A DNA stretch of 64,000 nucleotides, from sequence record OR455461.1, one strand, 5' to 3'. The stretch comes from Staphylococcus phage AH12. This document shows, in pieces, positions 1 through 60,403 of the stretch. A model generated the notes under the pieces. That model was not told the DNA's origin and did no database searches. It saw only the letters and a program-made list of their open reading frames with translations. Position numbers and translations under genes: made by a program. Every line of letters starts with the position of its first letter. Position 1 is the stretch's first letter.

Positions 1-193
1 TTTTCCAGATCCATTATCTCCAAGAAGCATTATCATATTATTTTTACTCTTACTGAAGTCTATTTCAATTTCTTTTAATCCTGTTCCAGCATATATACCT
101 ATAAAGTTAACTAACTTTAATCTTTTAATTTTCATTATCCAAAGTCACTCTCCTAGCTGAATTATAATTTTTCGTTACTATAAATTTTTAATT

Positions 194-922: not shown

Positions 923-938
923 ATTAGATTCCTCCTTT

Positions 939-1721: not shown

Positions 1722-1737
1722 TACATTGATCTCCTTT

Positions 1738-3299: not shown

Positions 3300-3335
3300 T
3301 ATCTATTTCATCTCCTAATTTATATCTATATTTCA

Positions 3336-4115: not shown

Positions 4116-4141
4116 TTATTTAACTCCTTTTATTATAATAA

Positions 4142-4169
4142 TCCCAATACTAAATTAATAGTATTGGGA
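4142..4169. terminator. hairpin terminator TCCCAATAC-loop-GTATTGGGA
   Basis: Perfect 9-bp inverted repeat with flanking T/A runs. Same stem sequence recurs at 19047..19080. Confidence 0.5.
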
Positions 4170-4195
4170 TAACTTTTTAATAATATATATTTATT

Positions 4196-4597
4196 CTAAT
4201 CTTCAGAATTAGGTGATACTTGTCCATTTTCCATTTCTTCACGTTGTTCTTTAAGTCTGTCGAGAACTTCTTTTTCTTCTTTATTTTGAGTTAATTCTGG
4301 TTCAATTAATAATTCTTTTTCTTTCATATCTTCTAATATACTTAAACCTTTTTGAACTTCTGGCGATTCATTAGAAGGATTAAATCTATTGTGTTTATTA
4401 TCATAGTAATTTAATTTAACTAGGTCTGAATTAGTTTCAATAACTACTTCAGCTTCTATGAATAAAATATCATTTGGATCAGTCACACGCTTTCTATATA
4501 CTAAAGCTTTAGTATAAGAATCTTTTCTAAAACCATAATCTCTTAATAGTTGTTTAATATTTTCTTTATTACTATTTAATCTATATTCTGATAACAT
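4196..4597 (-). CDS. hypothetical protein with acidic C-terminus
   Basis: 133-aa ORF followed by the hairpin terminator at 4142..4169. Confidence 0.5.
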   Translation of the reverse strand: MLSEYRLNSNKENIKQLLRDYGFRKDSYTKALVYRKRVTDPNDILFIEAEVVIETNSDLVKLNYYDNKHNRFNPSNESPEVQKGLSILEDMKEKELLIEPELTQNKEEKEVLDRLKEQREEMENGQVSPNSED

Positions 4598-4610
4598 TAT
4601 AAATCACTCC

Positions 4611-4736
4611 TTAATTGTTTTTACTAAATTCATGAACTTCATTAAGATGCTCATGGTCTTGATAACTAAATTTAAATTCATATAGTTTCTTTTCAAATCT
4701 TTTTCTAGTTAATAATTCGTATAATCTTTTTAACAT
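4611..4736 (-). CDS. small hypothetical protein (41 aa, MLKRLYELLTRKRFEKK...)
   Basis: Short ORF not in the supplied track. Preceded by AAGGAGATG plus 8 nt then ATG. Confidence 0.3.
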   Translation of the reverse strand: MLKRLYELLTRKRFEKKLYEFKFSYQDHEHLNEVHEFSKNN

Positions 4737-4760
4737 ATCTAATTCATCTCCTTATTAATT

Positions 4761-5171
4761 TTAAAATGACGCATCTATTATTAAATAAAAATCATGCTTA
4801 TTGCTTTCTAAATAGTATCTATTTTGAAATATTTCTAACATTAATTTGTAGTATTTTGTTAGATCATTATCAAAATTATCTTCTTTTAATTCTTTTTTCA
4901 TTAATTCTTTTAAATTTGATTCTGAAATTACTTGAACATCATAACCTTCATCATCTTTAAAAATAGTTGAATTTTCACTTAAAACTTTAAATAATTCATG
5001 TGGTTTATATAATTCTAATTCAAATAAGTGATTTTTCTTATTTATATATCTTTTATTTTTAATATACCAATCTAAATTTCTTTGATGACTTTTATTTATT
5101 CCATATATACTAAGTTCCATACCCATAAATAATACATCTCCTATATAATAAATACCCATAATATATTGCAT
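4761..5171 (-). CDS. hypothetical protein
   Basis: 136-aa ORF. Exact start uncertain, several in-frame Met codons. Confidence 0.45.
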   Translation of the reverse strand: MQYIMGIYYIGDVLFMGMELSIYGINKSHQRNLDWYIKNKRYINKKNHLFELELYKPHELFKVLSENSTIFKDDEGYDVQVISESNLKELMKKELKEDNFDNDLTKYYKLMLEIFQNRYYLESNKHDFYLIIDASF

Positions 5172-5194
5172 TAATATATTATGGGTAAAATAAT

Positions 5195-5980
5195 TTAAAA
5201 TTCTGCTTTTTGATAGATGTTACCAAATTCATCTTTAACTATTTCATCATTACCTTCAATATCTTCAAAGATAAGATCTCTAGTCATAGCAAATAATTCT
5301 GGATATTCATCTTCAAGTTCATCTTCTTCAATGATATTCATTTCTTTATCGGCAATTACTAACTCATATTCATCTAAATTATCACCTAATACAAAGAATT
5401 TCAATGTGTCTTTATATACTTTTAAAATAGATGATAAGTCTTGATGTTTAAGTTCATTAACCTCTTTTTGTAATTCTTCTCTTTTTTCAATTTCTTTTTC
5501 ATCTTCATCTATATTTTTATTTAGATTTTCTAAAGTTTGATCTAATTTATCTTTCAAATCTTCTTCTTCTTCAGTAGTATCTTCTTCATTTTCTGTCATA
5601 CTGTTCAATATATCTTTATTAGACATAGTATTAAGCTGACTAAGTACATTTTTAGCAAGAACTTTATAATTATCTTCAGATTCATCATCTTCAACCATTT
5701 TCTGAGCTTTCATAGTTAAGTCAATAATATCTTTTTTAACATTTTTCATTTGCATAATAGTGTCTTTAATTTCTTTTTCTACACTAATAATGTTAGCTTC
5801 CATATTAGATACAAATGTATGTTTAGGATATTTCAGATTCTTAGTCAGATCTCTAATTCTTTCTTCTAATTGAATTTCTTTACGTTCCATTTTAGATTTA
5901 AATCCAACTAGCATTTTATATTCTTCCATCATATCATTAATTTGTGAAATTAAATCAATTTCATTATTTTCATTAGACAT
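5195..5980 (-). CDS. hypothetical acidic coiled-coil protein
   Basis: 261-aa ORF, Glu/Lys/Asp-rich heptad-like sequence. Confidence 0.55.
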   Translation of the reverse strand: MSNENNEIDLISQINDMMEEYKMLVGFKSKMERKEIQLEERIRDLTKNLKYPKHTFVSNMEANIISVEKEIKDTIMQMKNVKKDIIDLTMKAQKMVEDDESEDNYKVLAKNVLSQLNTMSNKDILNSMTENEEDTTEEEEDLKDKLDQTLENLNKNIDEDEKEIEKREELQKEVNELKHQDLSSILKVYKDTLKFFVLGDNLDEYELVIADKEMNIIEEDELEDEYPELFAMTRDLIFEDIEGNDEIVKDEFGNIYQKAEF

Positions 5981-6026
5981 TTATTTAATCACTTCTTTCA
6001 TATATTATAAAAGTAAGTTAATTAAA

Positions 6027-6713
6027 TTACTTAAAGTTTTTATTTACTAAATAGTTTTTAATTTCTTTCTCATCTTTAACTTCAATAAATTTCTTATTGA
6101 AATTTAATATATTATAATCATCTAATGTCCCATCTTTATATTTAGAGAAATCTTCTAGTTTTATTTTATTCTTATTTTCTTCAAATTCTTCTAGAATTTC
6201 TTCATTAATTATATATAAATCAATATCATCATTTTCAATTTCTTTTAATATCGCTTCAAACATTTCACTAAAGAAAATCTGATCGTCTTCTTTATGAGTG
6301 TATTCAAATTTAGGATAATTTTCATATTCAAATAATTTCCGGTTATAAAATAAGTTTCTTACTTTTGTGAAATTTCCAACGCTTTCAAATTTATTAAGAG
6401 TTGCAGCAGTAGGTACAAGTTTAATATCAATTATAGCTTCATGATTAAGCTTCAACCGAATAATCAATTCTATTTCTTTTATTCTATACATGATATTATT
6501 GTGATTAATTACAATGAACTTTCTAGTCATTCCTTGATGCCTTAATATATAGTCTCCTTCTGTATATTTCTCATGCTTCACTAAGTATAGATTATCATCT
6601 ACATAGTTAATGAATGAAAAAGCTCTAATATATTTTTCTATCCCATCTTTTGCTTCTACATATTTTCCATTATCTTTATTTTTGTATAATTTGAAATCAT
6701 ACATATCATTCAA
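6027..6713 (-). CDS. hypothetical protein; C-terminal-tag paralog family (..EVKDEKEIKNYLVNKNFK)
   Basis: 228-aa ORF. Confidence 0.55.
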   Translation of the reverse strand: MNDMYDFKLYKNKDNGKYVEAKDGIEKYIRAFSFINYVDDNLYLVKHEKYTEGDYILRHQGMTRKFIVINHNNIMYRIKEIELIIRLKLNHEAIIDIKLVPTAATLNKFESVGNFTKVRNLFYNRKLFEYENYPKFEYTHKEDDQIFFSEMFEAILKEIENDDIDLYIINEEILEEFEENKNKIKLEDFSKYKDGTLDDYNILNFNKKFIEVKDEKEIKNYLVNKNFK

Positions 6714-7323
6714 ACCCTTTCTTGACTAAGTAATTTTTAATTTCCTTTTCATCCGTTACTTCTTCAAATAGTTCATCTATATTACTTAAATCATAGATTT
6801 CTTTTATATTATCTTTACTTATTTTGTAATCATGAATATTATCTTTATCATTTAATGAAAATACATTGAATATAGAACCATTTTTATTAAATATATCTCT
6901 AGTCAAGTATTCTTTAGCTTTGTCTATTAAAGTTTTTCCTTCAGTATATATTTCTCCATCATTAAAATAAAATTTACTTTCACCTTCTTCAGATACAAAA
7001 GGTCCTATTTCACAGTGAACTTCTTTTTTTGAAAACTTTGGAATATTCAATACAAAACTAAATTCATATTGACCGTCATTTTTATCTACGAAAAGATCAA
7101 ATTCATTTACATAAAAAAGATTATTCATATCATAACCGAATCTTAGAATTAGACCATCCATAGAATTTATCCACAGACGAACATTTTCAACATCATAACC
7201 AGTACAGCCCGGATGTTTGAAAAATTGATCAAAAGATATATCAAATAATTCTTTTCTAGAAAGACTCTTTTCATTAATGAAACTATATTCTAGGATGTCA
7301 GACACATATAATGTTTTATTCAT
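6706..7323 (-). CDS. hypothetical protein; C-terminal-tag paralog family (..EEVTDEKEIKNYLVKKGFE)
   Basis: 205-aa ORF. Confidence 0.55.
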   Translation of the reverse strand: MNKTLYVSDILEYSFINEKSLSRKELFDISFDQFFKHPGCTGYDVENVRLWINSMDGLILRFGYDMNNLFYVNEFDLFVDKNDGQYEFSFVLNIPKFSKKEVHCEIGPFVSEEGESKFYFNDGEIYTEGKTLIDKAKEYLTRDIFNKNGSIFNVFSLNDKDNIHDYKISKDNIKEIYDLSNIDELFEEVTDEKEIKNYLVKKGFE

Positions 7324-7341
7324 TTTAATTACCTTCTTTCA

Positions 7342-7887
7342 TCATTTAAAATTTTTCTCTACTAAATATTTTTTAATTTCTTTTTCATCTTTAATTTCAT
7401 CAAAGCATTCTAATATACCGCTAATATCTCTTTCAATCCCATCAATAATTATTTTTAATTCAATTCTATCATTCTTAATAATATAATCAGAAGCATTAAC
7501 AACGGATTGAATTAAATCTCCTTTATCAGTTTCATAATTATCAAGAAGAATATATGTGTATAATCTAGTATTAACATTGTATTCTCTTAATTTAAATAGA
7601 TCTAATGGTAATCTAATTCTAGAATATACCAATATGCTATTATTGTCTCCATGCGTTATTGATAAAGGACCTTTTAAATAACCATCTATTTTCATGTATA
7701 CATTTGATAAATAATCATAAATACTAATATCATCAGAATCACTTCTTATATAAACATTAGTAAATAATATTAATAAAGATAAACCTAACACACGATCATT
7801 TTCTATATTATTATGATTAAATTGTATTATTTTATGATGTTTACTTTTTCTTAAAAATCTAGAGTTTTTTAAATCCATATATTTCAC
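7342..7887 (-). CDS. hypothetical protein; C-terminal-tag paralog family (..DEIKDEKEIKKYLVEKNFK)
   Basis: 181-aa ORF. Confidence 0.55.
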   Translation of the reverse strand: MKYMDLKNSRFLRKSKHHKIIQFNHNNIENDRVLGLSLLILFTNVYIRSDSDDISIYDYLSNVYMKIDGYLKGPLSITHGDNNSILVYSRIRLPLDLFKLREYNVNTRLYTYILLDNYETDKGDLIQSVVNASDYIIKNDRIELKIIIDGIERDISGILECFDEIKDEKEIKKYLVEKNFK

Positions 7888-7893
7888 TTCTCT

Positions 7894-8535
7894 CTACTTA
7901 AAATTTTCTTTAACTAAGTATTGTTTAATTTCTTTTTCACTTTCTAATTTTTCTAAGACCTTGTATATTTCATCGAGTGTATATTCTTCTAAAATTAAAT
8001 CTTTCTTAAATTCTCGACTTGTCATAAAATCAATATCATCCTCTACAGAATCAACTGTATATATTATTAAATTTGTTTCTTTTTTACTACTAAAGAGATC
8101 AATTATATTTGAAATTAATTCATGTTCCAAATTATCTCTATTTTTAATTTGAATTTTAGCTGTATATGAAAATACTTGACTACTAATTGAACTTTTAAAA
8201 GGTCCTATATTCTTGTATCCATTTTCATTTTTATCTAATAATGAAAATACAAAATATAATTCAAAATAATTATTATTGCACGTGTCTGTTATATCTATAT
8301 AAGAATTCTTAGTTCTGTAATAAGTATTTTTATCCCTTATCAAAATACTATTGGTTTTTAATGAAAATAAACCAATTTCATCTATTTTTTTCTTAACGTT
8401 ATTAAAATTAAATAATTCTTTGAATAGATTAACATTTAATTCATCTTTAGTAACATCTTTATTAGTTACTATTATTTGCCCTCTACTATCAACTTTATAG
8501 AATTCATGATTATTTATATATTCATTATTATCCAT
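7894..8535 (-). CDS. hypothetical protein; C-terminal-tag paralog family (..ESEKEIKQYLVKENFK)
   Basis: 213-aa ORF. Confidence 0.55.
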   Translation of the reverse strand: MDNNEYINNHEFYKVDSRGQIIVTNKDVTKDELNVNLFKELFNFNNVKKKIDEIGLFSLKTNSILIRDKNTYYRTKNSYIDITDTCNNNYFELYFVFSLLDKNENGYKNIGPFKSSISSQVFSYTAKIQIKNRDNLEHELISNIIDLFSSKKETNLIIYTVDSVEDDIDFMTSREFKKDLILEEYTLDEIYKVLEKLESEKEIKQYLVKENFK

Positions 8536-8569
8536 ATTAACTTCATCTCCTCTATTTAAAATATTATTA

Positions 8570-8600
8570 GAGATAATGAATTATTATAATCCATTATCTC
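8570..8600 (-). terminator. hairpin GAGATAATG..CATTATCTC
   Basis: 9-bp inverted repeat in intergenic gap. Confidence 0.35.
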
Positions 8601-8629
8601 ATTTTTATAATATATATTTAATACATATT

Positions 8630-9301
8630 TCACCTAAATCCTTCTTTAACTAAGTAATTCTTGAATTCTTTATCAGTAGCAGTTCTAAATAAATCTTTAT
8701 TGTGTAAATTAATATCTTTTAAACTATAATATGATCCATCAATTAAAAACTGTAGGTCTTCATATTTATTCAATTCACTTATCATCTTGATGAATTGTTT
8801 TTGAAACTTCTCAAGTGATAAGTGAAATTTAGGACATCTTTCACTAATACTATTCAAAGCAACGCCTTCATTTTTGGTTAGTTTAATTGTATTAAGTTTA
8901 CTATTTATACTTGTACCCATCTTCATCATATTATACTCATACAACATTTCATCTTTTAGATAACTATTATCTTTCTCTTTACTTATTAATTTTAATTCAG
9001 TTTTTACAAATGATATTCCAGCAAAACTAGTTGATCCTGAATCCATATTTTGATAATAAGACAACTTCATATTCTTATAATCATTAAACCCTCTTAATTT
9101 CAGTTTACATTCAACTGTAAATTGCAATACATTTTCATAATCAGGATTAGCGTTATCAGTTAATAATTTTATCATATTGATAGTATCTACTCTTTCAATA
9201 TAATCTCTATCATTATCATATCTATCTTTATTTATTTTCATGAAACGATTATCTTCCAAATCTTTATTTATTATATATAAATCAAAATCATAACCTTCCA
9301 T
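8630..9301 (-). CDS. hypothetical protein; C-terminal-tag paralog family (..TDKEFKNYLVKEGFR)
   Basis: ORF 8630..9397 trimmed to the Met (MEGYDFD) that follows AAGGAGG. This removes the overlap with the upstream gene. Confidence 0.5.
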   Translation of the reverse strand: MEGYDFDLYIINKDLEDNRFMKINKDRYDNDRDYIERVDTINMIKLLTDNANPDYENVLQFTVECKLKLRGFNDYKNMKLSYYQNMDSGSTSFAGISFVKTELKLISKEKDNSYLKDEMLYEYNMMKMGTSINSKLNTIKLTKNEGVALNSISERCPKFHLSLEKFQKQFIKMISELNKYEDLQFLIDGSYYSLKDINLHNKDLFRTATDKEFKNYLVKEGFR

Positions 9302-9314
9302 TAACAATTCCTCC

Positions 9315-9800
9315 TTATTTAAAATGATTTCTAACTTTAAAATCTTTAACTTCTTTACAATCTTCTGAGATAATTTCAAATATATCTTCATTATCAAAAT
9401 TGAATTTTTCTAATGGAATATTATAATATTTCATATTTATATCTATCGTATCACATATTCTTTTATAAAATAAATAATAAAGATCAACTGAAGAGTCTGA
9501 TATGACAAGATTTTGATTTGTTAAATTTATATTTTTAGGTATAAAAGGGGCACTATTAAAGTCCCAATTAATATGTGTAGCTAAATTATGATTAGTAAAA
9601 TCGTAAATTAAGAAAAAATCTAGTTTTATATTACCTTCTTCTTCATCATATAATTCAATCTTTTTACCATCAGATTTATAAAAAGAAAAATTTTCTTTTT
9701 TAAATTCATTATTGAATACATAATAGAAAGCATCGTCTTTTCTATGAATATCATTAACTTCATATATTTCATTATTTACTTTATCTTTGTAATATATCAT
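9315..9800 (-). CDS. hypothetical protein; tandem duplicate of 9818..10297, short version of family tag (..VKDFKVRNHFK)
   Basis: 161-aa ORF. Its first ~30 aa and the underlying DNA are nearly identical to the neighbour. Confidence 0.55.
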   Translation of the reverse strand: MIYYKDKVNNEIYEVNDIHRKDDAFYYVFNNEFKKENFSFYKSDGKKIELYDEEEGNIKLDFFLIYDFTNHNLATHINWDFNSAPFIPKNINLTNQNLVISDSSVDLYYLFYKRICDTIDINMKYYNIPLEKFNFDNEDIFEIISEDCKEVKDFKVRNHFK

Positions 9801-9817
9801 TATCTATTTCAGCTCCA

Positions 9818-10297
9818 TTATTTAAATGTATTTCTAACTTTAAAATCTTTTACTTCTTGACTATTTTCATCCAATATTTCAAATATATCTGTATTACTAA
9901 ATTTAAAATCTTTTAATTTGACATAGTACTTTGATAATTTTTGATCTATCTCACATATATTTTTATATATTAAATAATAGAGATCCTCAGCAGAATCACT
10001 TGAAATAAAATTTTGACTCATTAAATTAAGTTGATGGCCCATTAAAGGTACATCTTTATTCCATGAAGGAATTAATGTCGTTTCATAATTAATAAAATTA
10101 TAACGAATATCAAATCTATATTTTAAAAATCCATACTCTTCATCTATAAATTCTACTATTTTGCTACTAGAAAAATACATATCCTCAAATGTTGGTAAAA
10201 ATTCGTTTCCAAATACATAATAGAATGCATCATCACTTCTATGAATATCATTAACTTCATATATTTCGTTATTTACTTTATCTTTGTAATATATCAT
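9818..10297 (-). CDS. hypothetical protein; tandem duplicate of 9315..9800 (..VKDFKVRNTFK)
   Basis: 159-aa ORF. Confidence 0.55.
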   Translation of the reverse strand: MIYYKDKVNNEIYEVNDIHRSDDAFYYVFGNEFLPTFEDMYFSSSKIVEFIDEEYGFLKYRFDIRYNFINYETTLIPSWNKDVPLMGHQLNLMSQNFISSDSAEDLYYLIYKNICEIDQKLSKYYVKLKDFKFSNTDIFEILDENSQEVKDFKVRNTFK

Positions 10298-10311
10298 CTA
10301 TTTACCCTTCC

Positions 10312-11022
10312 TTATTTAAAATTTTCTTTAATTAAATATTTCTTAATTTCTTTTTCATCAGTTATTTCTTCAGATATAGAATACAGATAATTTTTAATAT
10401 ATTCCATAAAAGGTATAAACGCTCCATCTATATTAATTGACATATCTTTTAATATATAGTGAATCAGACTGTCTAAAGACTTATATTCATTATCTTCTAT
10501 ACTCTCTAAATATTCTTTTTTAAAATCTACTCTAAAAGATATATCTTCATCAATTAGCATTATTCTTTTAATTGAGTATTTCTCACTGTCACAATTATCT
10601 AATACATTTTTTACCTTTTGAGGGTTTTTTATTTTTAAAACAATTTGAAATATTCTTTCATTATCAATATTATCATAAAAACAAACAATTGAAGCCTTTA
10701 TTTTATCAGAATCATTACCCTTAATTACCATATTTTTATCTTTTCCAGTTAGATTTTTAAGATTCATAATAATATCTGAGTAAATATAAAAATGGAAATT
10801 CATCTGCATATTGTTTACTAGAAAACTACTATCAAGAAATTCAATATTCTTTTGATTTTTATTTGTTATATGTTCCATAGCTTTATATAAAAATCTACCA
10901 TTATCAATTTCATTATTATTTAAAGAAAATTTTTGATTAGTTATTGTATTATTGTATACTTTTATATTATTCATTTTATCCACCTCAATTTTATAATATA
11001 TATTTAAATAAGCATTTTGCAT
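10312..11022 (-). CDS. hypothetical protein; C-terminal-tag paralog family (..EEITDEKEIKKYLIKENFK)
   Basis: 236-aa ORF. Confidence 0.55.
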   Translation of the reverse strand: MQNAYLNIYYKIEVDKMNNIKVYNNTITNQKFSLNNNEIDNGRFLYKAMEHITNKNQKNIEFLDSSFLVNNMQMNFHFYIYSDIIMNLKNLTGKDKNMVIKGNDSDKIKASIVCFYDNIDNERIFQIVLKIKNPQKVKNVLDNCDSEKYSIKRIMLIDEDISFRVDFKKEYLESIEDNEYKSLDSLIHYILKDMSINIDGAFIPFMEYIKNYLYSISEEITDEKEIKKYLIKENFK

Positions 11023-11079
11023 AAAAGCAATATAATAAGAGTAACGATCTATATTAGACCGTTACTCTGAATTTTTAAA

Positions 11080-13246
11080 TTATTCTTTAGTTAAAGAATA
11101 TAAAGCTTGTACCATATATTTATGATAATTAGACTATATCTTATGATATTTAAATCATTTCCATATTTAGTCGTTGAACAACTTTTATTAAGTTGATGCT
11201 GATTAGTTTTGTTTTTCCAGCAATTAATGAAATTTATTGAGAGCATACAAACTTACTCTCATTACCAACTCCACGTATACTATTTCCTGTGTAGTTTAAG
11301 TAATTAGTTTTCTTATTAATAAGTTTATCAGCTTCTTTATTTGCCTCTACAGACCATAAAGAGCGTATTGAAATCATATCCATTTTATATACATGTATTT
11401 ACATATAATTAGACTATATCTTCTTTAGTAATATATTTAGTCGTTGAACAACTTTTATTAAGTTGATGCTGATTATCTTATAGATTTTCCAGCAATTAAT
11501 ATTATTTAATGATGGTAATATGAAATTTTGCCATCAAAGTCAGCCGTAGTATTAACTTCATATAAATTTTTTATGAAGACTAGACTATATCAAACACTTT
11601 TAATTAAGTGTAATTATATTTAGTCGTTGAACAACTTTTATTAAGTTGATGCTGGTTAGATTTGACATTCCAGCAATTAATAATTTTTTGACATTATATC
11701 GCTATAATGAAAGGTCATTAAAATAGCCAAGTGCTTGAGCATATGAATTGTGTATGATTGCAGTATCTAAGAAAATATCTTCATCAATAGGATATTCTCT
11801 TACTACTTTAGGGTAATCTTTTAATACTATATCATCTAAAACTATTTCTGGAATAGTATCAACAGTAGTTAATATTTTAATTTTAGCAGGGGCTACGTTC
11901 AAGAAATTTTCGCATTTATTATATTTATATAATACTTATATAAATTAGACTATATTATATACTATTTAATAGTACCATTGCATTTAGTCGTTGAACAATT
12001 ATATTTAATTGATGCTGATTAACTTTATTAATAGTATTTCAGCAATTAACAGTGTTTATCGACTTAAATCACTTTAAGAAGCGACCATTTTATTAATCGG
12101 ATATCTTGAATACATAACATGCTTATCTTCTACTATTTCAGTTGCAGCGATATAAAGTAAATCAATTACAGTAAAATCTCTACCTAAAGTATTTTCAAAT
12201 AATTTAACTTTATGACGTTTACCTTCTCTATCATTTACATATATAGGACTAAATCTTTCATTAGGATCTTTAATAAAAAATTCTAGCATATTCTTAATTT
12301 CTTTATCATCAAATTGTTCATAAACTTCCTCTAATGAAAGCTCTTTATCTCCTTCACCTGTAGCTGTTTGGAAAGCATCTTTATGAAGTTCAATAAAATC
12401 AATTATATACTTATTAAAGAATGGTAAGAATAATGTAACTAATTGAGTTAATGGTACACCTAACTCACCAAACTCTATCTGCATTTCATCCCATTTATTC
12501 GAATTAATTTTAGGTGAAGAAATAACTGCACGAGTACTATTATCTACTGTTTTACCCAATATACGTTTTTGCATAAAACCAGTTTTACCTGATAATTCTC
12601 CTGAAGTAAATTTCTGATATATTTCAAATAATGTATTTTGTATATTATATTTAGTACTGTTAGCTATAAATCCGAATGAATTAAAACTAATAGCATCTAC
12701 AGAACGTATAATAGAAGAATACATATTATTAACTTCTTCAGTATCTTGAATTTCTCCTGAAGTTTCATTAGGATTAAAGTCTCTATAAAATGCAGGTATT
12801 ACTAACCATTTATCTACAAATATTTTTTGTTTATCCGTATTCTTAATCATATCAATTTTTTCAGATCTAATACGAGAATCATTCTTTCTAAATTTTAAAT
12901 CATCAAATACTTCATATAAGAAATTCAGTCCAGTGTCTCCATCTTCTGAAGGAACTAATTGACCTTTTTCTACTTTAAAATACTCTGAACCCTGAATACA
13001 TAGTTCAATATTTTTATCTAAATCTTTTAATGCTTTATAAGCTACCGGATTAAGGTATTTATCCTTTAAATTAATCCAACCTAAATTATTTTTTCTTTCA
13101 GGAGTACCTATCAAACCAAATATGTCATATGAAAATAAACCATCATCTTTTGGTAGTATACCCGAATCAAAAAATACAGGGTTGGTTACTTCTTTAGCAT
13201 TAGTGTCAGTTATGACTTGTTCAATATCTATCATATCTACTTTCAT
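11080..13246 (-). CDS. multisubunit RNA polymerase beta-prime-like subunit, N-terminal/catalytic-loop part. Split gene: join(13246..12096, 11912..11717, 11544..11530, 11380..11255, 11112..11080), about 506 aa
   Basis: Exon A contains GKTGFMQKRILGKTVDNSTRAVI, matching the beta-prime [23 protein letters not shown] motif. Predicted spliced product reads ..GYFN-ADFDG-DMISIRSLWSVEANKEAD.., matching ..[26 protein letters not shown]... Exon E gives ..VQALYSLTKE, matching VVLGLYYMTR. Exon borders were derived from P1/IGS pairing and reading frame. Confidence 0.7.
11113..11254 (-). ncRNA. ultra-compact group I intron R4 (142 nt) in the RNAP beta-prime-like gene
   Basis: P1 is exon GAGAGU paired to IGS GCUCUC with terminal U.G, 10-nt loop. 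Same core. Ends ..AUAUAUG before GUACAAGCU (V Q A). The first intron nucleotides encode KFVCSQ* when unspliced. Confidence 0.7.
11381..11529 (-). ncRNA. ultra-compact group I intron R3 (149 nt) in the RNAP beta-prime-like gene
   Basis: Same core. Hairpin UGAUGG(C)-15 nt loop-CCAUCA(A) forms P1. Ends ..AUAUAAAAUG immediately before GAUAUGAUU (D M I). The 5' splice site appears to follow C of GGC, facing A in the IGS. Confidence 0.6.
11545..11716 (-). ncRNA. ultra-compact group I intron R2 (172 nt) in the RNAP beta-prime-like gene
   Basis: Same conserved core. 5' exon ends ..UUUUAAU (Asn). GNRA hairpin CAUUAUA-GCGA-UAUAAUG lies in the P1 loop. Tentative IGS is GUCAAAA. The terminal G sits just before GCUGACUUUGAUGGC. 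Exact 3' splice site is tentative. Confidence 0.55.
11913..12095 (-). ncRNA. ultra-compact group I intron R1 (183 nt) in the RNAP beta-prime-like gene
   Basis: P/Q/R/S cores present (UUAAUUGCUG, AAUCAGCAUC, GUUCAACGACUAAAU, GAUAUAGUCUA). P1 is exon CGAU paired to IGS GUCG with U.G at the splice site. GNRA-capped hairpin CUUAAA-GUGA-UUUAAG. Ends ..AAUAAAUG. The reading frame is restored (AU + C = Ile). Confidence 0.7.
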
Positions 13247-13249
13247 TTA

Positions 13250-13540
13250 CTATTTCACATCACTTTCTTTTAATAATGGATTAATATCTTTTTCAATATA
13301 ATAATCTACCATAGTTTCTTTATTATAATATTTTAGTAATTCTTTATTATCTTCTTTATTAAATGAATTATACATTAATGTAGTAATACATATAAATAAA
13401 ACGATTATCATATTAAAGGATAGTATAATAATTTTATTACTTTTTTTGTAATTAGTTTTACTTAATAATACTACAGACGGTATAGCAGCTAAAATAAGAT
13501 ATAATAAAGAAAAAACTATTATGAAATCTTTAATTTCCAT
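13250..13540 (-). CDS. small membrane protein (two predicted TM helices)
   Basis: 96-aa ORF with hydrophobic stretches IIVFSLLYLILAAIPSVVLL and IIILSFNMIIVLFICITTLM. Confidence 0.5.
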   Translation of the reverse strand: MEIKDFIIVFSLLYLILAAIPSVVLLSKTNYKKSNKIIILSFNMIIVLFICITTLMYNSFNKEDNKELLKYYNKETMVDYYIEKDINPLLKESDVK

Positions 13541-13597
13541 TTTTCATTTTAATTTCCCTTCTCAATGTCAATTTTTATAAAAAAAAAATTATAATAA

Positions 13598-13630
13598 ATC
13601 CATGTTTGACTTGAATTTGTCAAACATGGA
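13598..13630 (-). terminator. rho-independent terminator
   Basis: 13-bp perfect stem ATCCATGTTTGAC..GTCAAACATGGAT followed on the minus strand by a U10 run. Confidence 0.6.
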
Positions 13631-13638
13631 TTATTTGT

Positions 13639-14373
13639 TTATTTAATACTTTGTCCCATATAACTGAAATAATTTAAATCAATTTTCTTTTCTTTAGCTT
13701 TTAATATAGTGCCTTCGTCTATATTTTGATTATAACCTAGTGATGGAATATCTATACCAGTCTGTGATACATTTTCACAATTCTTTATGATATCACTAAT
13801 ATTACTTACTTCATCTTCATATATTCTAGTAACATATCCTAAAGTATTAATTACGTCAGACTTTTTCTCATCTGGTTCTAAGTAGAATATATCGACTTTA
13901 TCCATACTTCCTCTAAATAAAGTTTTTAAAAACTTCTCTTTAGATTTTAGATTATTATCTGAAGTTTTAGTAACGATAGATAATTTATTCATTAACGGTG
14001 TATTAATAGTATATGATAAACTTCTACCTAAATTAGTTGGTTGAAGTTCATCATATAAATCTTTTTTAAATATAATTTCATTTTGTAGTCTTTCTCTTGC
14101 TTCATTAACTTCTTTTTCTGAAAAATTATTATAAACATCTTTCCTAACTAACCATTGGTCTATATAGTATTCAGGTCTACTTAATATTACATCATAATGT
14201 TTATTATAATCAAAGTCTTCAGATAATCTAAAGAATTGATTATAATATTCATAATCCTCATGCATTAATTGAACTATCTTTGGTGAAATATTAACTAAGA
14301 CTTCATCACAATCAGCAACTATATGACCTGTATTCATTTCATCTTCTGTATACATATATTCGTTATCCTCCAT
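13639..14373 (-). CDS. HAD-superfamily 5'(3')-deoxyribonucleotidase-like protein (putative dNMP phosphatase)
   Basis: N-terminal HIVADCDEVLVN resembles the HAD motif I (D-x-D-x-V/T-L) of the NT5C-type nucleotidase family. Assignment from motif only. Confidence 0.4.
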   Translation of the reverse strand: MEDNEYMYTEDEMNTGHIVADCDEVLVNISPKIVQLMHEDYEYYNQFFRLSEDFDYNKHYDVILSRPEYYIDQWLVRKDVYNNFSEKEVNEARERLQNEIIFKKDLYDELQPTNLGRSLSYTINTPLMNKLSIVTKTSDNNLKSKEKFLKTLFRGSMDKVDIFYLEPDEKKSDVINTLGYVTRIYEDEVSNISDIIKNCENVSQTGIDIPSLGYNQNIDEGTILKAKEKKIDLNYFSYMGQSIK

Positions 14374-14376
14374 ATA

Positions 14377-15687
14377 CTATTCAAAATCCTTTATAAATTT
14401 ATCTTTTAAATTTGTTATTTTATCTTCTCTAAATTTAGTTTGTCTAATTTTAAACGGTCTTTCAGGTATTAAGAAATCAGTTGTATGAATATTTTCTTCA
14501 TCTGAAATTGTCATATATTTAGGGTTAGATGTATCAAAAGCTGTATAAATATCAAATTTATTTTTCTTCATTAAATTATATTTAGCTTGTGAAATTAATA
14601 CACTATAATAAATATCTTTTAATTTAACTGATTTTCTATAATTAGATGGATCTTGAAGCTCTGGAGATTCTTGACCATTAACTAATATACCTTTACCATG
14701 ATAATTCTTACCAATATAGTATATTAAATAAATGAACCCTTGATCATCTTTAACACTGAATAATCTATAACCATCTTTATCTTCATCAAATATTTCATAA
14801 ATATTCCAGTCTTTAATTATTCTACGTTTAGCATAATAAGGTCTATTTTCAGGTCTTAAATGATAAGGTTGTCCTCCAATAGGCATTTTCTTATCGTATT
14901 CTTCTTTTTCAAGTTGTTTAATATATGTTTTACTGAAATTATCAAATAAGAAGGACACTTGATCATCAAAACCTTCATAATTATAAGTAATTGGTAAAAT
15001 AACTTTAAATATTTTGCTATTAGTTTTATTAAATACTTTTCTTAAATTAAAATCGTTTAATTTAATTCTTATTTCATCAGAACTAATATCTTCATAATAA
15101 TCATCAATTTTAATTGATTCTAAAGAACTAATTAAAGTACTATATGATTTTGGATTTTCTTCTTCAATATCTGTATGAATAACAATTTCTTCATTTTCAT
15201 GATCAATATGAGCAATCATTCTATAATATTTCATATCAAGATAATCAACATCATATACTTCTTCTTTATCAGGTTCTCTTGACCATATTTCTAAATCATC
15301 AAATCCTTTTATTTCTAATTTAGAATTATCTTTCAAAGTAATATTTTTTAAGAAATCTTTTCCAATATGTTTTCTAGATAAATGAGTGAAGAATATCTTT
15401 AACTGAGATTTATTTAATTTAGGTATATCTTTATCTAGTTCAAAGAAGTAACAATCATTATTAAATTTTTCTTTATTATCATAATTATTTCTATAATCAT
15501 TTAATAAGTTTTTTAATTCTTTATCTTCCATAAATCTAGTTAAATTATCAATAATAAATCTATTATGATCAAATCTATAAAACCAAGTACCATCTACATC
15601 CATCTTTCTAAACTTAGAAGGTATTTTTCTACCATTTTTTCTATATAACGATTTCTTCTTACTAAATACATCTGATTGTTTTGCCAT
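14377..15687 (-). CDS. hypothetical protein
   Basis: 436-aa ORF with basic N-terminus. Confidence 0.5.
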   Translation of the reverse strand: MAKQSDVFSKKKSLYRKNGRKIPSKFRKMDVDGTWFYRFDHNRFIIDNLTRFMEDKELKNLLNDYRNNYDNKEKFNNDCYFFELDKDIPKLNKSQLKIFFTHLSRKHIGKDFLKNITLKDNSKLEIKGFDDLEIWSREPDKEEVYDVDYLDMKYYRMIAHIDHENEEIVIHTDIEEENPKSYSTLISSLESIKIDDYYEDISSDEIRIKLNDFNLRKVFNKTNSKIFKVILPITYNYEGFDDQVSFLFDNFSKTYIKQLEKEEYDKKMPIGGQPYHLRPENRPYYAKRRIIKDWNIYEIFDEDKDGYRLFSVKDDQGFIYLIYYIGKNYHGKGILVNGQESPELQDPSNYRKSVKLKDIYYSVLISQAKYNLMKKNKFDIYTAFDTSNPKYMTISDEENIHTTDFLIPERPFKIRQTKFREDKITNLKDKFIKDFE

Positions 15688-16336: not shown

Positions 16337-18626
16337 CTAAAATTTAACCATATTTGATACGAAAGAACTATTTGAAGATTCTAACACTTTAACTCCAATA
16401 GATTCAATAATATCTTTACCTGGTTTAATGTGATCTTCTATCATTGAATCATAATCAATAAATGGTCTAAACTCTTCAGGTATTTTATTTCCTTCTACAG
16501 CAATTACATTCATTCCATTTTTAACTAATCTTTCGTTTCTAAATATTTCTCTAAATTTATCTAATAATTCTTCATCATCAACTTTATCTTTAATATCTCC
16601 AAATGATTTAATATTTAACTTAACCATTAAGATATTTGATGGAAGAGATATTTCTTTATCTGGATACATTAAATTCCATGATAAAGCTGCTCTATAATTC
16701 ATTTGTGTATAAGGATCTTTATATACTTCTGCATTATTAGCTTTACCAGGTTTTAAGAATTCAATATCACCATTCTCTAATGATTTTTTAATCATCTCTT
16801 CAATTTCTTTATATTTACGTATAATACCAATTCTATCAATACCAGTTTTATTTTCTAAAATATCTTTCTGTAGTATTTCAGTGAATAATTCTCTAATACG
16901 TTTATTAGTATTAACTTTTCTAATAGCCATACCTTTAACATCTAAGTCTGGTGGTTGAACTAAATTACCTTCTTGTTGTATTACTGATGATGCATAAGTT
17001 TTCTTTTTATCTGTTGTTAATTGTTTGTCAAGTAAAACGTTTATACTTATATTTAAAATATAAGACTAGACTATATCATATTCTTTATTATTAAGAATTA
17101 TTATATTTAGTCGTTGAACTTCATTATTGAAGATGCTGATTAAGTTTATTTTGTCTCAGCAATTAATAATATTTACTAATACACATTACTGTATACTGGA
17201 GCATTTACATACTCATTTTTCATTGATATAACACCTAAATGTTCATCTTCTAATCCTAAATCTTTACAGAATCTATGATAAGATAATTCTAGTAATTTAG
17301 TTATTTGATAGTTAATAATAGATATATTACCTACACGTTGTTCTAATTTATCTTCTAAACCATTTTCTGCAATAGGGAAATCTTCAGGTTTCTTTTCTTT
17401 CATTTTTTGATATAATGGATCTAAATGTACAAAGTTACTATCTGTCTTTAATATTATATTTTTAAATATAAAATAGACTATATCATATACTCTTTATGAG
17501 CATCATTATATTTAGTCGTTGAACAATCATATTGATTGATGCTGATTAATTTAATAAATACTTTCTCAGCAATTAATAATGTGAATCAACTTAAATTACT
17601 TTAAGCGGCGACCATGTTATCATAATCGATTGTAAGTACACTTCTACGTTTTTTATAATTCATTCTATACATTCTATTGTAATCTTGATAATTATAGATA
17701 ACCCAGTCTTCTAATATATCAAATAATTCATCTAATAATGGAATCATATCTTCAGGTGGTTCATTTGGATCTAAGAAATCTTCTCTACCAGTCATTTTAC
17801 TAATTTTATTATCAAATATATCTGTATGATCTAATAAACCATAAAGATTATTTTTAAAATAAACTCTATTTTTCTCATCTTGAGTTAAATTACTAAAGAA
17901 TTCTTTCAAATCATTTTCTTCATCTTCAGAGAAATTATATTCTACGTTATCCAATAAACCTTTTAATATTTCATTATCAGTAGGAACTGAATTTATCTTA
18001 ATATCGTGTTCTTTATATTCTTCTTGACATATTCTTACGATATAATTATAAATCTCACTAATATTCATAAAGAATATTTTACTTCCTATAAATCTTTCTA
18101 AAGCTATTGCTGAAGTAGTAACAATATCAACACCACTATATGTGATAGCAGGGCCTGAATAAGGATCATAGAAAATACTATTTCCTTGTATCATTGCACC
18201 ATAGTAACTATTAGCCAAAATCTTAATTGTTTTTTGCTCGTTCATATATTTATGATATTTAATATCGTCTACACCTTTACTTATAAACATATTATGTTTA
18301 GCTACTTTACGTGAGTCAATGAAGTCTTTTAACATCTCTGCATTTAAATTTTTTCTTTGTGATTGTGGTTGATAAATCGAACCTGATCCAGTTACTATTA
18401 AATTTGAATTAATAACTGTACGTAATAAAGAATCAACATTCATTTCTTGACCTGATACTTCTGTCATGACAGGTTTAACATTTTCTTTTACAAATTCTCT
18501 ACACTCTTTTAATATTTCTTCTTTATCAAAATCAGGATTATTCTTTTGAACCATCCATACCAATTGTTCTAAGTATCCGGTTAAAGCTCTTTTTCTTTCT
18601 TCTTTATTCTTTAATTCTGTTGTCAT
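16337..18626 (-). CDS. family-B DNA polymerase, C-terminal catalytic (palm/fingers/thumb) part, encoded as its own gene. Split gene: join(18626..17625, 17445..17193, 17037..16337), about 651 aa
   Basis: Exon 1 has motif B KILANSYYGAMIQG (Kx3NSxYG). Predicted splicing joins ..VLTID to TDSNFV.., giving motif C IDTDS (cf YGDTDS). Exon 3 has the KKxY motif DKKKTYASS. AGGAGGT RBS lies before the ATG at 18626. The N-terminal exonuclease part and motif A are not in this gene. Confidence 0.7.
17038..17192 (-). ncRNA. ultra-compact group I intron (155 nt) between polB exons 2 and 3
   Basis: Same core. P1 is exon GUAU plus intron AC, paired to IGS GUGUAU with U.G at the splice site. Hairpin CUUAUAU..AUAUAAG precedes the 3' end ..AUAAACG. 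The frame is restored (U + UU = Phe). Confidence 0.6.
17446..17624 (-). ncRNA. ultra-compact group I intron (179 nt) between polB exons 1 and 2
   Basis: Same P/Q/R/S core. P1 is exon CGAU paired to IGS GUCG with U.G. GNRA hairpin CUUAAA-GUAA-UUUAAG. Closely related to intron R1, same 5' flank AUGGUCGC..CUUAAAGURAUUUAAGUYGAU. Ends ..AUAUUAAAG. The unspliced frame reads YDNMVAA*. Confidence 0.7.
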
Positions 18627-58052: not shown

Positions 58053-60403
58053 GATTCACATTCAACAATACCTTGAGAATTTTCATCATGGTCTGGTGAA
58101 TAAATACGAGTATAATACATAGATTTAATACCTTTACTGTAAGCATAGTTACGTAATCTACTAATATCACGAGTAGTAGTTTCTTTATCTAAAGAATCTT
58201 TTTTCCATTCATACAATTCAGGATCAAGTTCATTCATTAAATAAATATTCATAGAGATACCTTGATCAACATGATATTGAGCTTCTGAATATAAATCAAT
58301 CATATCACGCATATCTAATTGATAAGCATTTTTCTTAAAGTAATCAAAGTTATCTGGTGTAATACCTGGTGCTGGATAGAAAGTAGTACCTGTTTTACCT
58401 TCTACACGTTCTTCAATTAATTCAACAATAGGGTGAATTGAAGGTGATACTTCTCTAACATAACCAATAGAACCATTAGGTGCTACAGCTAATCTATTTT
58501 GATTGTATAAACCATCCATAACGATATTATTTCTTAATTGTTCCCAATCACTATCAGATGGAATAAAGATATCTTCAAATAATTCTTTAACTTTTTCAGT
58601 ACGTGGTTGAATATTTTTACCAATATAACGTTTATCAAAGTAAGAACCATCAGCATATTCAGTTTTTTCAAATAAATAGAATGATTCATCTTTTTCTTTA
58701 GCAATTTTATTTGATTCAACTAACGTCCAATAGTTTAATAGCATGAAATAAATATTAGTGAAATCTTTAGATTCTTCTGATCCATATTGAATATGATTTT
58801 CAGCTAAATAAGTGTGTAATCCCATTGCACCTAAACCAACTGTATGGAATAAATCATTAGCTTTCTTAACTGTAGGTACAGCTTCAATATTAGATTTTTC
58901 TGCTACTGAATTTAAACTTCTTAACATAGTTCCAACTGATTTACCAAAGTCTTCTGATTTCATTAAACCAGGTACGATAGTTGAAGCTAAGTTACATGAA
59001 ACATCTGTTCCTGTTTTAACATATTGTTGATTATCGTCAACTAATGAAGGGTATTGTACTTGCAGAATTTCACTACACAAATTACTCATTTTAATTGTAC
59101 CATGACTAATTGGATTAGCTCTATTAGCTGTATCAATATTAATAATATAAGGATATCCAGATTCTTGTTGTAATTTACTAATAGTAGTTTCTAAATCACG
59201 AGCATACATTTTCTCTTTACCAATACGTTTATCATCTACAAAGATATCATAGTAAGTATTAAAGTCAATACTATCGAAATCTAAATCATAATATTTTTTA
59301 ATATCATATGGACTAAATGTATATAATGATTTATTTTCTTTAACTAATTGGTAATATTTATCTGGAACTGTTAAACCTAATGAAATAGTTTTTAGTCTTA
59401 CTTTCTCATCAGCATTTTCTTTCTTAGTATCTAAGAATTTCACTACATCTTTATGGAAAATATTTAAGTAAAGTGCACCTGCACCATTTCTTTGCATTTA
59501 TATTAACTATATGAAATTCATATAGATTAGACTATATCTTATACTATTAATAAGTATTATTATATTTAGTCGTTGAACAATCATCTTGATTGATGCTGAT
59601 TAAGTTTATAAACTTTTCCAGCAATTAATATTATTTATACTGAGCCATTAAAATTAACCCAGTTGATTTACATATGATAAAGTATCTTCAAATACTTTCA
59701 TAACTGGAACTACTCCTGAAGCAGCACCTTCAACACCTTTAATTGGATCATTATCAGCACGTAGATTACTTAAAGATACTCCTATTCCTCCACCACGTTT
59801 ACTTAATTGTGCCACATTAGAGATATTTCTATAAATAGATGATAAAGAATCCTCCATAGTTAATAAGAAACAACTTACTAACTCACCAGAACGTACTCTA
59901 CCTGCATTAAGAAATGTAGGTGTAGCTGGTTGGAAAGTACCTGTAATAATTTCATTAGCAATATCTCTAGCTAATTCTTCATCACCGTCAGCTAAGTATA
60001 AAGCTACAAATAAAATTCTATCTTCATATAGTTCTAATAAGATTTCCCCTGCATCATCTTTCATTGCATACTGTTCATAGAATTTTTTAGCTCCTAATAA
60101 ACGAGTAAAACGATGTTTATAAGCCATTAATTCTTTCATTAATCCTTTAATAAATTCAAAATTATAGTTATTGATCATATCTCCATCAATATAATCATTA
60201 TTAACTAAGTAATTAATTTTTTCCTTATATGTTTTAAAATATCTTACATTCTTATTAACTTTTTCATCGAAGTATTTACTAACAGAAGCTAACTCAAATT
60301 CTAGATCTAAATTACCGTCTTTTAATTGTGAACCTCTTGAATTCAATTCATTGTATGAATAATCTTTGAACTTTTCTGAGTTTAAGTCTATTTCTTTTGT
60401 CAT
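58040..60403 (-). CDS. nrdE: ribonucleotide reductase class Ib alpha subunit. Split gene: join(60403..59657, 59494..58040), about 733 aa
   Basis: Exon 1 has ..TFQPATPTFLNAGR..GELVSCFLL..SKRGGGIGVSLSNLR... Exon 2 has ..QRNGAGALYLNIFH.. and the C-terminal Cys pair (CESCSI). Predicted splicing gives the seamless ..NQLG-QRNGAGA.. junction. Confidence 0.8.
59495..59656 (-). ncRNA. ultra-compact group I intron (162 nt) in nrdE
   Basis: P1 is exon CUGGGU paired to IGS GCUCAG (C-G, U-A, G-C, G.U, G-C, terminal U.G), 11-nt loop. P/Q/R/S cores AAUUGCUGG, AAUCAGCAUC, GUUCAACGACUAAAU, AAGAUAUAGUCUA. P9-like hairpin CUAUAUG..CAUAUAG. Ends ..AUAUAAAUG. The ATG of the downstream ORF is actually the intron 3' end. 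Confidence 0.8.

Follow-up and report, generated by a model that had tools for sequence, protein, structure and literature searches.

How can a phage RNA polymerase (RNAP) gene encode the aspartate loop of its active centre when the codons of that loop lie on separate pieces of DNA? The question is raised by Staphylococcus phage AH12 (sequence record OR455461.1), of which one stretch of 64,000 nt, referred to here as the window, was analysed. Judged from its sequence, the gene at 13246..11080 on the minus strand codes for the N-terminal portion of the beta-prime subunit of the virion RNAP (vRNAP) of an AR9-like Staphylococcus jumbo phage. At its catalytic motif, the architecture is very probably a micro-exon of 15 or 14 nt placed between two group I introns, in a gene that contains four of them.

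Positions 10500-14500 of the window share 93-95% DNA identity with the Staphylococcus jumbo phages vB_StaM_PB50 and Machias and ~80% identity with MarsHill, Madawaska, S6, PALS_2, SA1, and LY01, all of which are AR9/PBS1-like phages; the G+C content of the window is ~22-25%. The corresponding gene of Machias and of PB50 carries the annotation "viral RNA polymerase beta-prime subunit". The minus strand at the locus reads ..GCACTTGGCTATTTTAATGACC.. / ..ACTACGGCTGACTTTGATGGCAAAATTT.. / ..TATAAAATGGATATGATT... The stretch GCTGACTTTGATGGC at 11544..11530 (minus strand) encodes ADFDG, and the next exon begins with GATATG at 11380; both are read directly and agree with an earlier interpretation made from the letters alone (the sequence-only reading). 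The probability that a random 15-mer encodes ADFDG is 1.2 × 10−7. Exons and putative introns were assigned as follows.

12096..13246, minus strand: exon 1 of the vRNAP beta-prime N-terminal gene, an open reading frame (ORF) that starts with ATG at 13246 and ends ..TAT CCG AT
11913..12095, minus strand: intron I1, 183 nt, group I, P2 hairpin with a GUGA loop; also in Machias, PB50, and LY01
11726..11912, minus strand: exon 2 (exon B of the sequence-only reading), ends ..GCA CTT GGC (A-L-G); based on the gap-free 503-aa product and the empty R1 site of Machias and PB50
11545..11725, minus strand: intron R1, 181 nt, group I, terminal G at 11545; alternative register 11724..11544
11530..11544, minus strand: micro-exon GCUGACUUUGAUGGC, 15 nt, A-D-F-D-G, with the first two catalytic Asp codons
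11381..11529, minus strand: intron R2, 149 nt, group I, without P2 and without P8, terminal G at 11381; same intron in Machias and PB50
11255..11380, minus strand: exon 4, starts GAT ATG (D-M-I-S-I-R..) with the third catalytic Asp, ends ..AAT GAG AGT
11113..11254, minus strand: intron I4, 142 nt, group I, P1 GAGAGU/GCUCUC (U·G), 7-bp P10
11080..11112, minus strand: exon 5, 33 nt, V-Q-A-L-Y-S-L-T-K-E and stop TAA at 11082-11080; matches the SA1 C-terminus ..GNESIQALHSLTKE*

Exon junctions and intron-less alleles

In SA1, S6, and PALS_2, the gene is uninterrupted (1512 nt), encodes ..YPIENFLNVAP.. ..SYAGALGADFDGDMISIRSLWTVEA.. ..GNESIQALHSLTKE*, and reads ..SYAGALGADFDGDM.. across the motif. 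Machias and PB50 contain I1, R2, and I4 and lack R1; their sequence GCACTTGGTGCAGATTTTGATGGC (ALGADFDG), followed past the junction by aaaatt.., is a natural empty R1 site. Natural empty sites are known for all four introns, and this presence/absence polymorphism is observed directly. Joining 13246..12096, 11912..11726, 11544..11530, 11380..11255, and 11112..11080, with excision of 12095-11913, 11725-11545, 11529-11381, and 11254-11113, restores an uninterrupted frame of 503 aa. The product aligns with zero gaps to SA1, S6, and PALS_2 and is identical to SA1 at 431 of the 503 residues, so that colinearity after excision is likewise a direct observation. At the exon 1/I1 junction, CCGAU|UAAUAAAAUGGUCG, a U·G pair is present in P1 and the product is colinear with ..YPIENFLNV.. 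of SA1. On these alignments, a ligated messenger RNA (mRNA) reading ..ALGADFDGD.. is best supported, and the predicted tryptic peptide over the micro-exon junctions is EYPIDEDIFLDTAIIHNSYAQALG(A/S)DFDGDMISIR. The sequence-only reading had proposed that the Asp triad is assembled only after two splicing events; this holds for the two introns at the motif (the gene has four), whereas the protein it predicted, ..GYFNADFDGD.., is wrong.

The identity of the spliced product was examined by database comparison. It scored 25.3 bits against Pfam RNA_pol_Rpb1_2 (PF00623), a value equal to the cut-off of that family, over aa 437-473, a stretch that includes ADFDGD. Among Protein Data Bank (PDB) entries, it matched the beta-prime structures of the AR9 non-virion RNAP (nvRNAP), 7S00/7S01 (E = 5 × 10−13), and also bacterial beta-prime (residues ~524-590), with ADFDGD of the window aligned to GDYDGD of AR9 and to the bacterial beta-prime motif. 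After splicing, the product has the (N/G)ADFDGD loop with three Asp in the Rpb1 domain 2 region, as found in beta-prime of multisubunit RNAPs. The micro-exon itself has the form of a few-codon internal exon that is bounded on both sides by group I introns and completes a conserved motif.

Group I fold of the intervening elements

Next to the coding pieces lie four copies of a 140-185-nt element with TTAATTGCTGG, AATCAGCATC, GTTCAACGACTAAAT, and GATATAGTCTAAT in common; we take these sequences to be the P/Q/R/S blocks of group I introns. In the window, the 15-mer GTTCAACGACTAAAT is found 7 times, each time on the minus strand; the expectation is 0.28 occurrences. That the ADFDG stretch lies between two introns, as the sequence-only reading had stated, is borne out by a group I core with P/Q/R/S-like motifs on both of its flanks. 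All four introns of the gene are without an ORF and measure 142-183 nt, and their sequences mark them as group I introns of unusually compact design. In-frame read-through stops begin 18-21 nt into each intron, in line with the 3-30 nt past the 5′ splice sites noted earlier. In T4 td, in-frame stops early in the intron keep ribosomes out of the ribozyme core.

For the comparative analysis, 19 intron copies of 140-183 nt were extracted, with junctions fixed by intron-less homologs, and all 19 end in G (omega-G). Fifteen distinct copies were aligned by MAFFT, and this alignment (A1) was not fitted to structure. RNAalifold recovered P4, P6, P7, and P8 from it. Across P3, P4, P6, P7, P8, and P9, 98.3% of the cells were paired, versus 24-46% when the partners were slid; changes on both sides were found at 21 of 34 pairs, and 0 of 500 shuffles reached any of the measures. 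These helices occur in the canonical order with a P3/P7 pseudoknot, a fold that the covariation shows directly. Folding of R1 alone recovered P2, P4/P5, P6, P7, P8, and P9 (z = −3.2), and folding of R2 alone recovered P4/P5, P6, P7, and P9; I4 has no P9. R1 keeps every nucleotide that is invariant across the 15 copies, and all its core helices are paired. The minimum free energy fold of the isolated P1-P2 region of R1 failed to give the comparative P1; the helices are short and AU-rich, and this result was judged uninformative.

Covariance searches gave graded results. On a 361-nt slice analysed with laxer filters, the Rfam group I model RF00028 matched R2 with 31.3 bits (E = 2.3 × 10−6) and R1 with 15.9 bits (E = 0.096), both below the curated threshold. 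The conserved P4, P6, P7, and J8/7 blocks were aligned, and P2, P5, P8, and P9 were truncated, with P8 reduced to 2 nt in R2. A search of a 4-kb slice at E ≤ 10 gave no group I match. The helices of R1 and the guide of R2 were assigned as follows.

11728-11726 (exon GGC) and 11725-11723 (UAU) with 11718-11713 (AUG-A-CC), minus strand: P1 of R1
11709-11703 / 11698-11692, minus strand: P2 of R1, GCGA loop
11685-11680 / 11617-11612, minus strand: P3 of R1
11675-11670 / 11655-11650, minus strand: P4 of R1
11648-11644 / 11636-11632, minus strand: P6 of R1
11625-11621 / 11587-11583, minus strand: P7 of R1
11611-11607 / 11598-11594, minus strand: P8 of R1
11578-11572 / 11562-11556, minus strand: P9 of R1
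11522-11511, minus strand: guide of R2, CAUAUU-A-CCAUC, P10 with the 3′ exon GAUAUG and P1 with the 5′ exon GAUGGC, C(−1) opposite A11516

Splice-site pairing and the register of intron R1

In every copy but R1 and R2, I1 and I4 included, the exon-final U pairs with the G of a guide located 9-14 nt into the intron. This U·G is replaced by a C opposite A at R2, in the window, Machias, and PB50, and at R1, in the window only; C·A would thus serve as the cleavage-site pair of both introns that flank the motif. P1 of R2 is formed with the last 6 nt of the micro-exon (11535-11530). At the R2 site, the window has GAUGGC|/ACCAUC versus GACGGU|/GCCGU in MarsHill and LY01, so that differences in the exon are matched in the guide at −4 (C-G to U-A) and at −1 (U·G to C·A). 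In its core, R2 is closer to I4-type introns (0.76 to MarsHill I4) than to the intron that MarsHill and LY01 have at this site (0.62; window 11529..11381 versus L004:5235-5392), which suggests that this site was colonised or re-cored more than once, by intron replacement or core recombination in which the site-specific guides were kept. The co-variation of guide and exon at the R2 site may compare different lineages, yet it validates the P1 register. A P10 scan gave 7 contiguous bp for R2 and I4 and nothing for R1 or for the intron closest to it; P10 is not a requirement of every group I intron. Because the 7-bp P10 of R2 is contiguous with P1, the R2 3′ splice site is fixed. This junction, which the sequence-only reading had regarded as the least certain, is the best supported one, by the 7-bp P10 and by three other phages.

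Doudna, Cormack, and Szostak reportedly found in 1989 that C·A functionally replaces U·G in vitro, and to our knowledge this substitution at the cleavage site has so far been known mainly from mutagenesis. A literature search on natural C·A at group I 5′ splice sites and on the smallest group I intron returned nothing citable.

The closest relative of R1 is an intron of the Machias nvRNAP beta-prime gene (80.6% identity), followed by one in the PB50 vRNAP beta gene. The Machias intron reads AUGGGU|UAUAAAGGUA-G-CC-UUU-(P2 CAUUAUA-GUGA-UAUAAUG), and R1 reads CUUGGC|UAUUUUAAUG-A-CC-UUU-(P2 CAUUAUA-GCGA-UAUAAUG); both relatives have GGU|..GCC-UUU-P2 versus GGC|..ACC-UUU-P2 in R1. The distance from splice site to guide is 10 nt in R1 and in the Machias intron, and their 3′ ends, ..CUACG|GCU and ..CAUG|GCC, are homologous. 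By this homology, the 5′ splice site of R1 falls after C11726 and its 3′ splice site after G11545, and the exons join as ALG|ADFDG. In Machias, the intron sits at the paralogous site of the other RNAP (AGMG|AD), which makes R1 look like an element transferred from one paralogous catalytic site to another. The PB50 intron (L009:602-781) is a third member of this subfamily (P2 CAUUAUA-GNRA-UAUAAUG) and splits ..SSYG|TYEDSS.., presumably the conserved GYxxEDS region of the beta subunit.

R1 appears to be a recent, lineage-private arrival, as it was present in no other record, contig, or protein searched. Exact-pattern scans of viral contigs revealed neither the R1/micro-exon junction nor the P2 region of the R1 subfamily, and the exon-B ORF, used as a protein query, retrieved only PB50, LY01, and one Logan contig, all lacking R1. 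Between the window and Machias/PB50, 8 of 328 exon nt differ, and three of these differences, all synonymous, fall close to the R1 site, at positions −1, +2, and +5. The +2 and +5 changes produce the 3′ flank GCTGAC, identical to that of the intron-less nvRNAP allele of S6, a pattern compatible with co-conversion from a donor with this flank. Intron-less alleles differ at the third position of the Gly codon (GGC, GGA, GGT, and GGG), and an intron that landed beside GGC could have regained wobble geometry via a G-to-A change in its guide.

If the elements are self-splicing, as their sequences lead us to infer, each would adopt the group I core (P3-P9), select its 5′ splice site by P1 pairing between exon and guide, and then presumably be removed by two guanosine-initiated transesterifications. 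P1 of R2 would be built on the final 6 nt of the micro-exon and its P10 on the opening 6-7 nt of exon 4, and R1 would pair only with GGC of exon 2 and form no P10. As R1 and the P1 of R2 use non-overlapping sequence, the anatomy predicts that the two ribozymes do not compete for micro-exon nucleotides and that no splicing order is imposed. The ligated mRNA would read ..SYAQALG-ADFDG-DMISIR.., and active RNAP would be obtainable only once R1 and R2 have both been spliced. R2 occupies an old and widely used insertion site, DxDG|D. Exon skipping, in which exon 2 is joined to exon 4, is conceivable by analogy and would delete ADFDG and inactivate the enzyme.

Several observations weigh against splicing as described. 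At the gathering score of RF00028 (50 bits), Rfam reported no RNA family in the whole 64 kb; R2 is without P8 as well as P2; R1 is without P10, has the shortest P5 of the intron family, and was seen in the window only, not in a second, independently isolated viable phage. The C at −1 departs from the near-universal U·G rule. The last point leads to the closest competitor of the 15-nt micro-exon, in which R1 is spliced 1 nt downstream at both ends, after U11725 and after G11544. The micro-exon would then be 14 nt (11543..11530) with UCU (Ser) as its first codon, and joining exon 2 to 11725 with the micro-exon from 11543 also yields 503 aa, in frame and gap-free, reading ..ALGSDFDGD... R1 ends in GG, and the shifted register uses a canonical U·G, the pair just 3′ of the C·A, together with a terminal G; it leaves a 12-nt tail after P9 as in most copies, which is a slightly better fit; and the AR9 residue before the first Asp of the motif is Gly, not Ala, so that Ala is not obligatory there. 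Set against this, the shift would replace, by a non-synonymous change, an Ala shared by 9 of the 9 Staphylococcus-phage alleles examined, while the exon changes at the R1 site are purely synonymous. It also puts a C·A mismatch at −2 of a 4-bp P1 and moves the cleavage pair 1 nt off the position, relative to CC-UUU-P2, that it has in both closest relatives, and R2 shows that C·A is used in the intron family of R1. P10 does not discriminate between the registers, being absent in both. The shifted register is accordingly rather unlikely, though far from negligible, and the register that gives Ala and a 15-nt micro-exon is moderately favoured.

Three further explanations were weighed. In the sequence-only reading, exon B ends with ..GYFN at 11717 and UAUUUUAAU is kept at the junction, giving ..GYFN-ADFDG-D... 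In favour of this junction are the U at −1, the G that closes the intron, the intact frame, and a superficial resemblance to bacterial YNADFDGD. Its product, however, is 506 aa, with a three-residue insertion (YFN) and three gap columns relative to every relative, and the nine extra nt past the end assigned at 11726 are the intron-side strand and loop of P1, homologous to intron sequence of the Machias nvRNAP intron. No guide with a U·G pair is available at 11717, and the likeness of YFNADFDGD to the bacterial motif is coincidental, the empty-site alleles reading ALGADFDG. With no usable P1 and three added residues, the end at 11717 was rejected as very improbable. R1 could instead be a recent insertion that splices poorly or not at all, in a defective gene copy or a non-viable genome, as its restriction to the window, its C·A pair, its lack of P10, and its short P5 might imply. 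R1 nevertheless keeps the family-invariant nucleotides and paired core helices and folds with the z-score given above, its flanking exon changes are all synonymous with the reading frame exactly kept, and the virion RNAP is presumably essential; we consider this explanation improbable. Translation of the fragments as separate polypeptides would resemble the split beta and beta-prime genes of AR9-like phages, whose RNAP subunits are distributed over several genes (10.1101/2020.12.14.422802), and the PB50 record does list the pieces as separate coding sequences (CDSs). The five-codon piece has no start codon and no ribosome-binding site, exons 2, 4, and 5 begin in the middle of the alignment with no ATG in the right place, and the DNA between the exons is a covarying group I fold whose excision restores exact colinearity, which leaves this explanation with almost no probability. 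The preferred reading thus remains a micro-exon between the self-splicing candidates R1 and R2.

Related systems and the compact intron family

The sequence-only reading called a 15-nt exon between group I introns extremely unusual, which is overstated in view of mitochondrial mini-exons, of 6-, 9-, and 14-nt exons in related phages, and of the AR9 intron at DxDG|D. In its annotation, the AR9 nvRNAP beta-prime gene g270 joins two exons, with a gene for an HNH endonuclease within the intron, which lies at the same position as R2, between DYDG and the third Asp. Its boundaries are GAC UAU GAC GGU|aaggcgauuGCCGU.. ..aaauG|GAC GUA, and its P1, GACGGU/GCCGU, is identical to that of the MarsHill and LY01 introns at the R2 site. 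Unlike R2, the AR9 intron is ~850 nt long, carries an HNH homing endonuclease, is the lone intron at the motif with no micro-exon, and has the canonical U·G. The mature AR9 beta-prime has a solved structure (7S00/7S01); assembly of the Asp triad only after splicing is thus already true of a studied phage. The nvRNAP of Internexus has the same intron arrangement as AR9, and the PB50 nvRNAP intron ends ..aaatg|GATACT. The R2 site is occupied in MarsHill, LY01, a Logan contig (L012), and the nvRNAP genes of AR9, Internexus, and PB50. On the contig L012 (ERR13865851, 2427 nt), the gene is more distantly related; its I1 site has a larger intron, of ~310 nt, and its R2 site (GATGGU|) an intron holding an ORF of >380 aa.

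Short exons at the motif were also found in related phages. In the nvRNAP beta-prime gene of Machias (MW349128, L008:1490-1857), the arrangement is ..AGMG|182-nt intron|GCCGAT (A-D)|180-nt intron|YDGDTL.., within ADYDGD. Neither the 6-nt exon nor the two introns are annotated, and the GenBank CDS ends at the first intron; once spliced, the peptide gives a single continuous alignment with seven intron-less relatives, including S6 (AGMGADYDGD). The LY01 vRNAP gene (OR836606) has five introns, three of which are packed at the motif (L005:6204-6948) around exons of 14 nt, CGTTAGGTGCCGAT, and 9 nt, TTTGACGGT; its reconstruction is 503 aa, gap-free, and identical to SA1 at 488 of 503 residues. For the 384-nt intron X of LY01, no junction has both U at −1 and the reading frame, and an in-frame junction is obtained only with G at −1. 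A canonical U·G pair is present 1 nt downstream, and a sequencing error or a non-canonical splice site is possible. Counted over both paralogous genes and several phages, introns enter the motif G|AD|F|DG|D at four or more distinct points.

According to Korn et al. (bioRxiv 10.1101/2020.12.14.422802), introns disrupt RNAP genes, the DNA polymerase gene, and others in MarsHill-like phages, as in AR9, with exon counts and introns inferred from protein alignment only. These phages share the gene and the clade with the window, and the passages concerned treat neither the class nor the structure of the introns and name no micro-exon. Machias shares I1, R2, and I4 with the window, and R1 is absent from all three MarsHill-like phages of that study. 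In mitochondrial genes with group I/II introns, mini-exons of <~4 codons "occur regularly" (PMC10352661). The fungal and protist cases resemble the present one in that exons of <~4-5 codons, as a rule at highly conserved residues, lie between self-splicing introns and are routinely missed by annotation (PMC10352661); they differ in being organellar, with introns that are usually large and often carry an ORF, whereas in the viral window both introns are <185 nt and belong to one multicopy family. A Staphylococcus phage Twort gene is described as having three group I introns and exon skipping (Landthaler & Shub 1999, summarised in PMC3073962). Twort thus shares with the window several similar group I introns close together and offers a precedent for a skipped internal exon, but it belongs to another phage family, and the gene is a different one. 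The preference of introns for active-site codons is textbook knowledge (PMC12908238).

The intron family has 27 places in Machias, 28 in LY01, 17 in PB50, and 9 in MarsHill. The classical phage introns (T4 td, nrdB, and sunY and SPO1 DNA polymerase) are ~250-1000 nt long, mostly with homing-endonuclease ORFs. They share with the introns of the window the location in polymerase, nucleotide-metabolism, or catalytic codons, the early in-frame stops, and the P/Q/R/S core; the family described here differs in its length of 140-183 nt, the lack of an ORF, and single members without P2, P8, or P9.

Three further introns of this kind were noted in the window. A 179-nt intron of the same family at 17624..17446 (minus strand) splits ..VLTID|TDSNF.. 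(DTDS) of DNA polymerase, with P1 CGAU/GUCG (U·G). A second DNA polymerase intron, 173 nt at 17210..17038 (minus strand), interrupts ..MKNE(F)|LLDKQ.. within a codon (GAG U|UU) and has U·G and a terminal G. A 162-nt intron of the same family at 59656..59495 (minus strand) lies in a ribonucleotide-reductase-like gene, ..SYVNQLG|QRNGAGA.., with P1 ACUGGGU/GCUCAGU.

Judged by the sequences compared, the new elements are R1 itself, which is absent from every other sequence searched, the C·A at both 5′ splice sites flanking the motif, and an intron family that is at once extremely compact and multicopy; the 15-nt exon produced by R1 is likewise a novelty among phage genes. The feature holds up; its importance lies in annotation and in how small a ribozyme can be, and it brings no new principle. 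If the introns are self-splicing, those of 142-149 nt without P2 and P8 or P9 would be near the minimal natural group I ribozyme, and the C·A cleavage pairs would be natural counterparts of a substitution known from mutagenesis. The motif, with its insertion points in both paralogous genes, is a dense case of introns homing to codons that are intolerant of imprecise deletion. A broader proposal can be made only tentatively and is less likely than the architecture itself: the introns may belong to a lineage of group I ribozymes not characterised before, ultra-compact (140-183 nt) and ORF-less, that multiplied to ~17-28 places per genome in some Staphylococcus jumbo phages, with P2, P8, or P9 dispensable and C·A tolerated at the cleavage site, and that target catalytic codons, namely RNAP DFDGD and GYxEDS, DNA polymerase DTDS, and ribonucleotide reductase. 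Were this so, insertions 6-15 nt apart would make both phage RNAPs depend on adjacent minimal ribozymes, and there would be room for exon skipping or for condition-dependent splicing (A+·C wobble, pH- or Mg-sensitive) as a control point.

For annotation, the consequences are practical. The curated Rfam threshold misses all seven group I introns of the window, standard pipelines would miss the family, and the records of relatives split or truncate these genes. Methods based on protein alignment do not see micro-exons of 6-15 nt, and the catalytic residues of both phage RNAPs are therefore missing from the database proteins. I4 and the final 33-nt exon (VQALYSLTKE*) are absent from the Machias (L001:5570-5711) and PB50 annotations, where the proteins end in the intron read-through ..GNESKFVCSQ*.

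Elsewhere in the window, ARAGORN detected no tRNA or tmRNA genes over the whole length. Two adjacent paralogous ORFs at 9315..9800 and 9818..10297 (minus strand; 161 and 159 aa) start with MIYYKDKVNNEIYEVNDIHR and end ..EVKDFKVRN(H/T)FK, which looks like a tandem duplication. Judged by GC/AT skew, the polarity of the coding strand changes near 28-34 kb and a second time near 52-56 kb.

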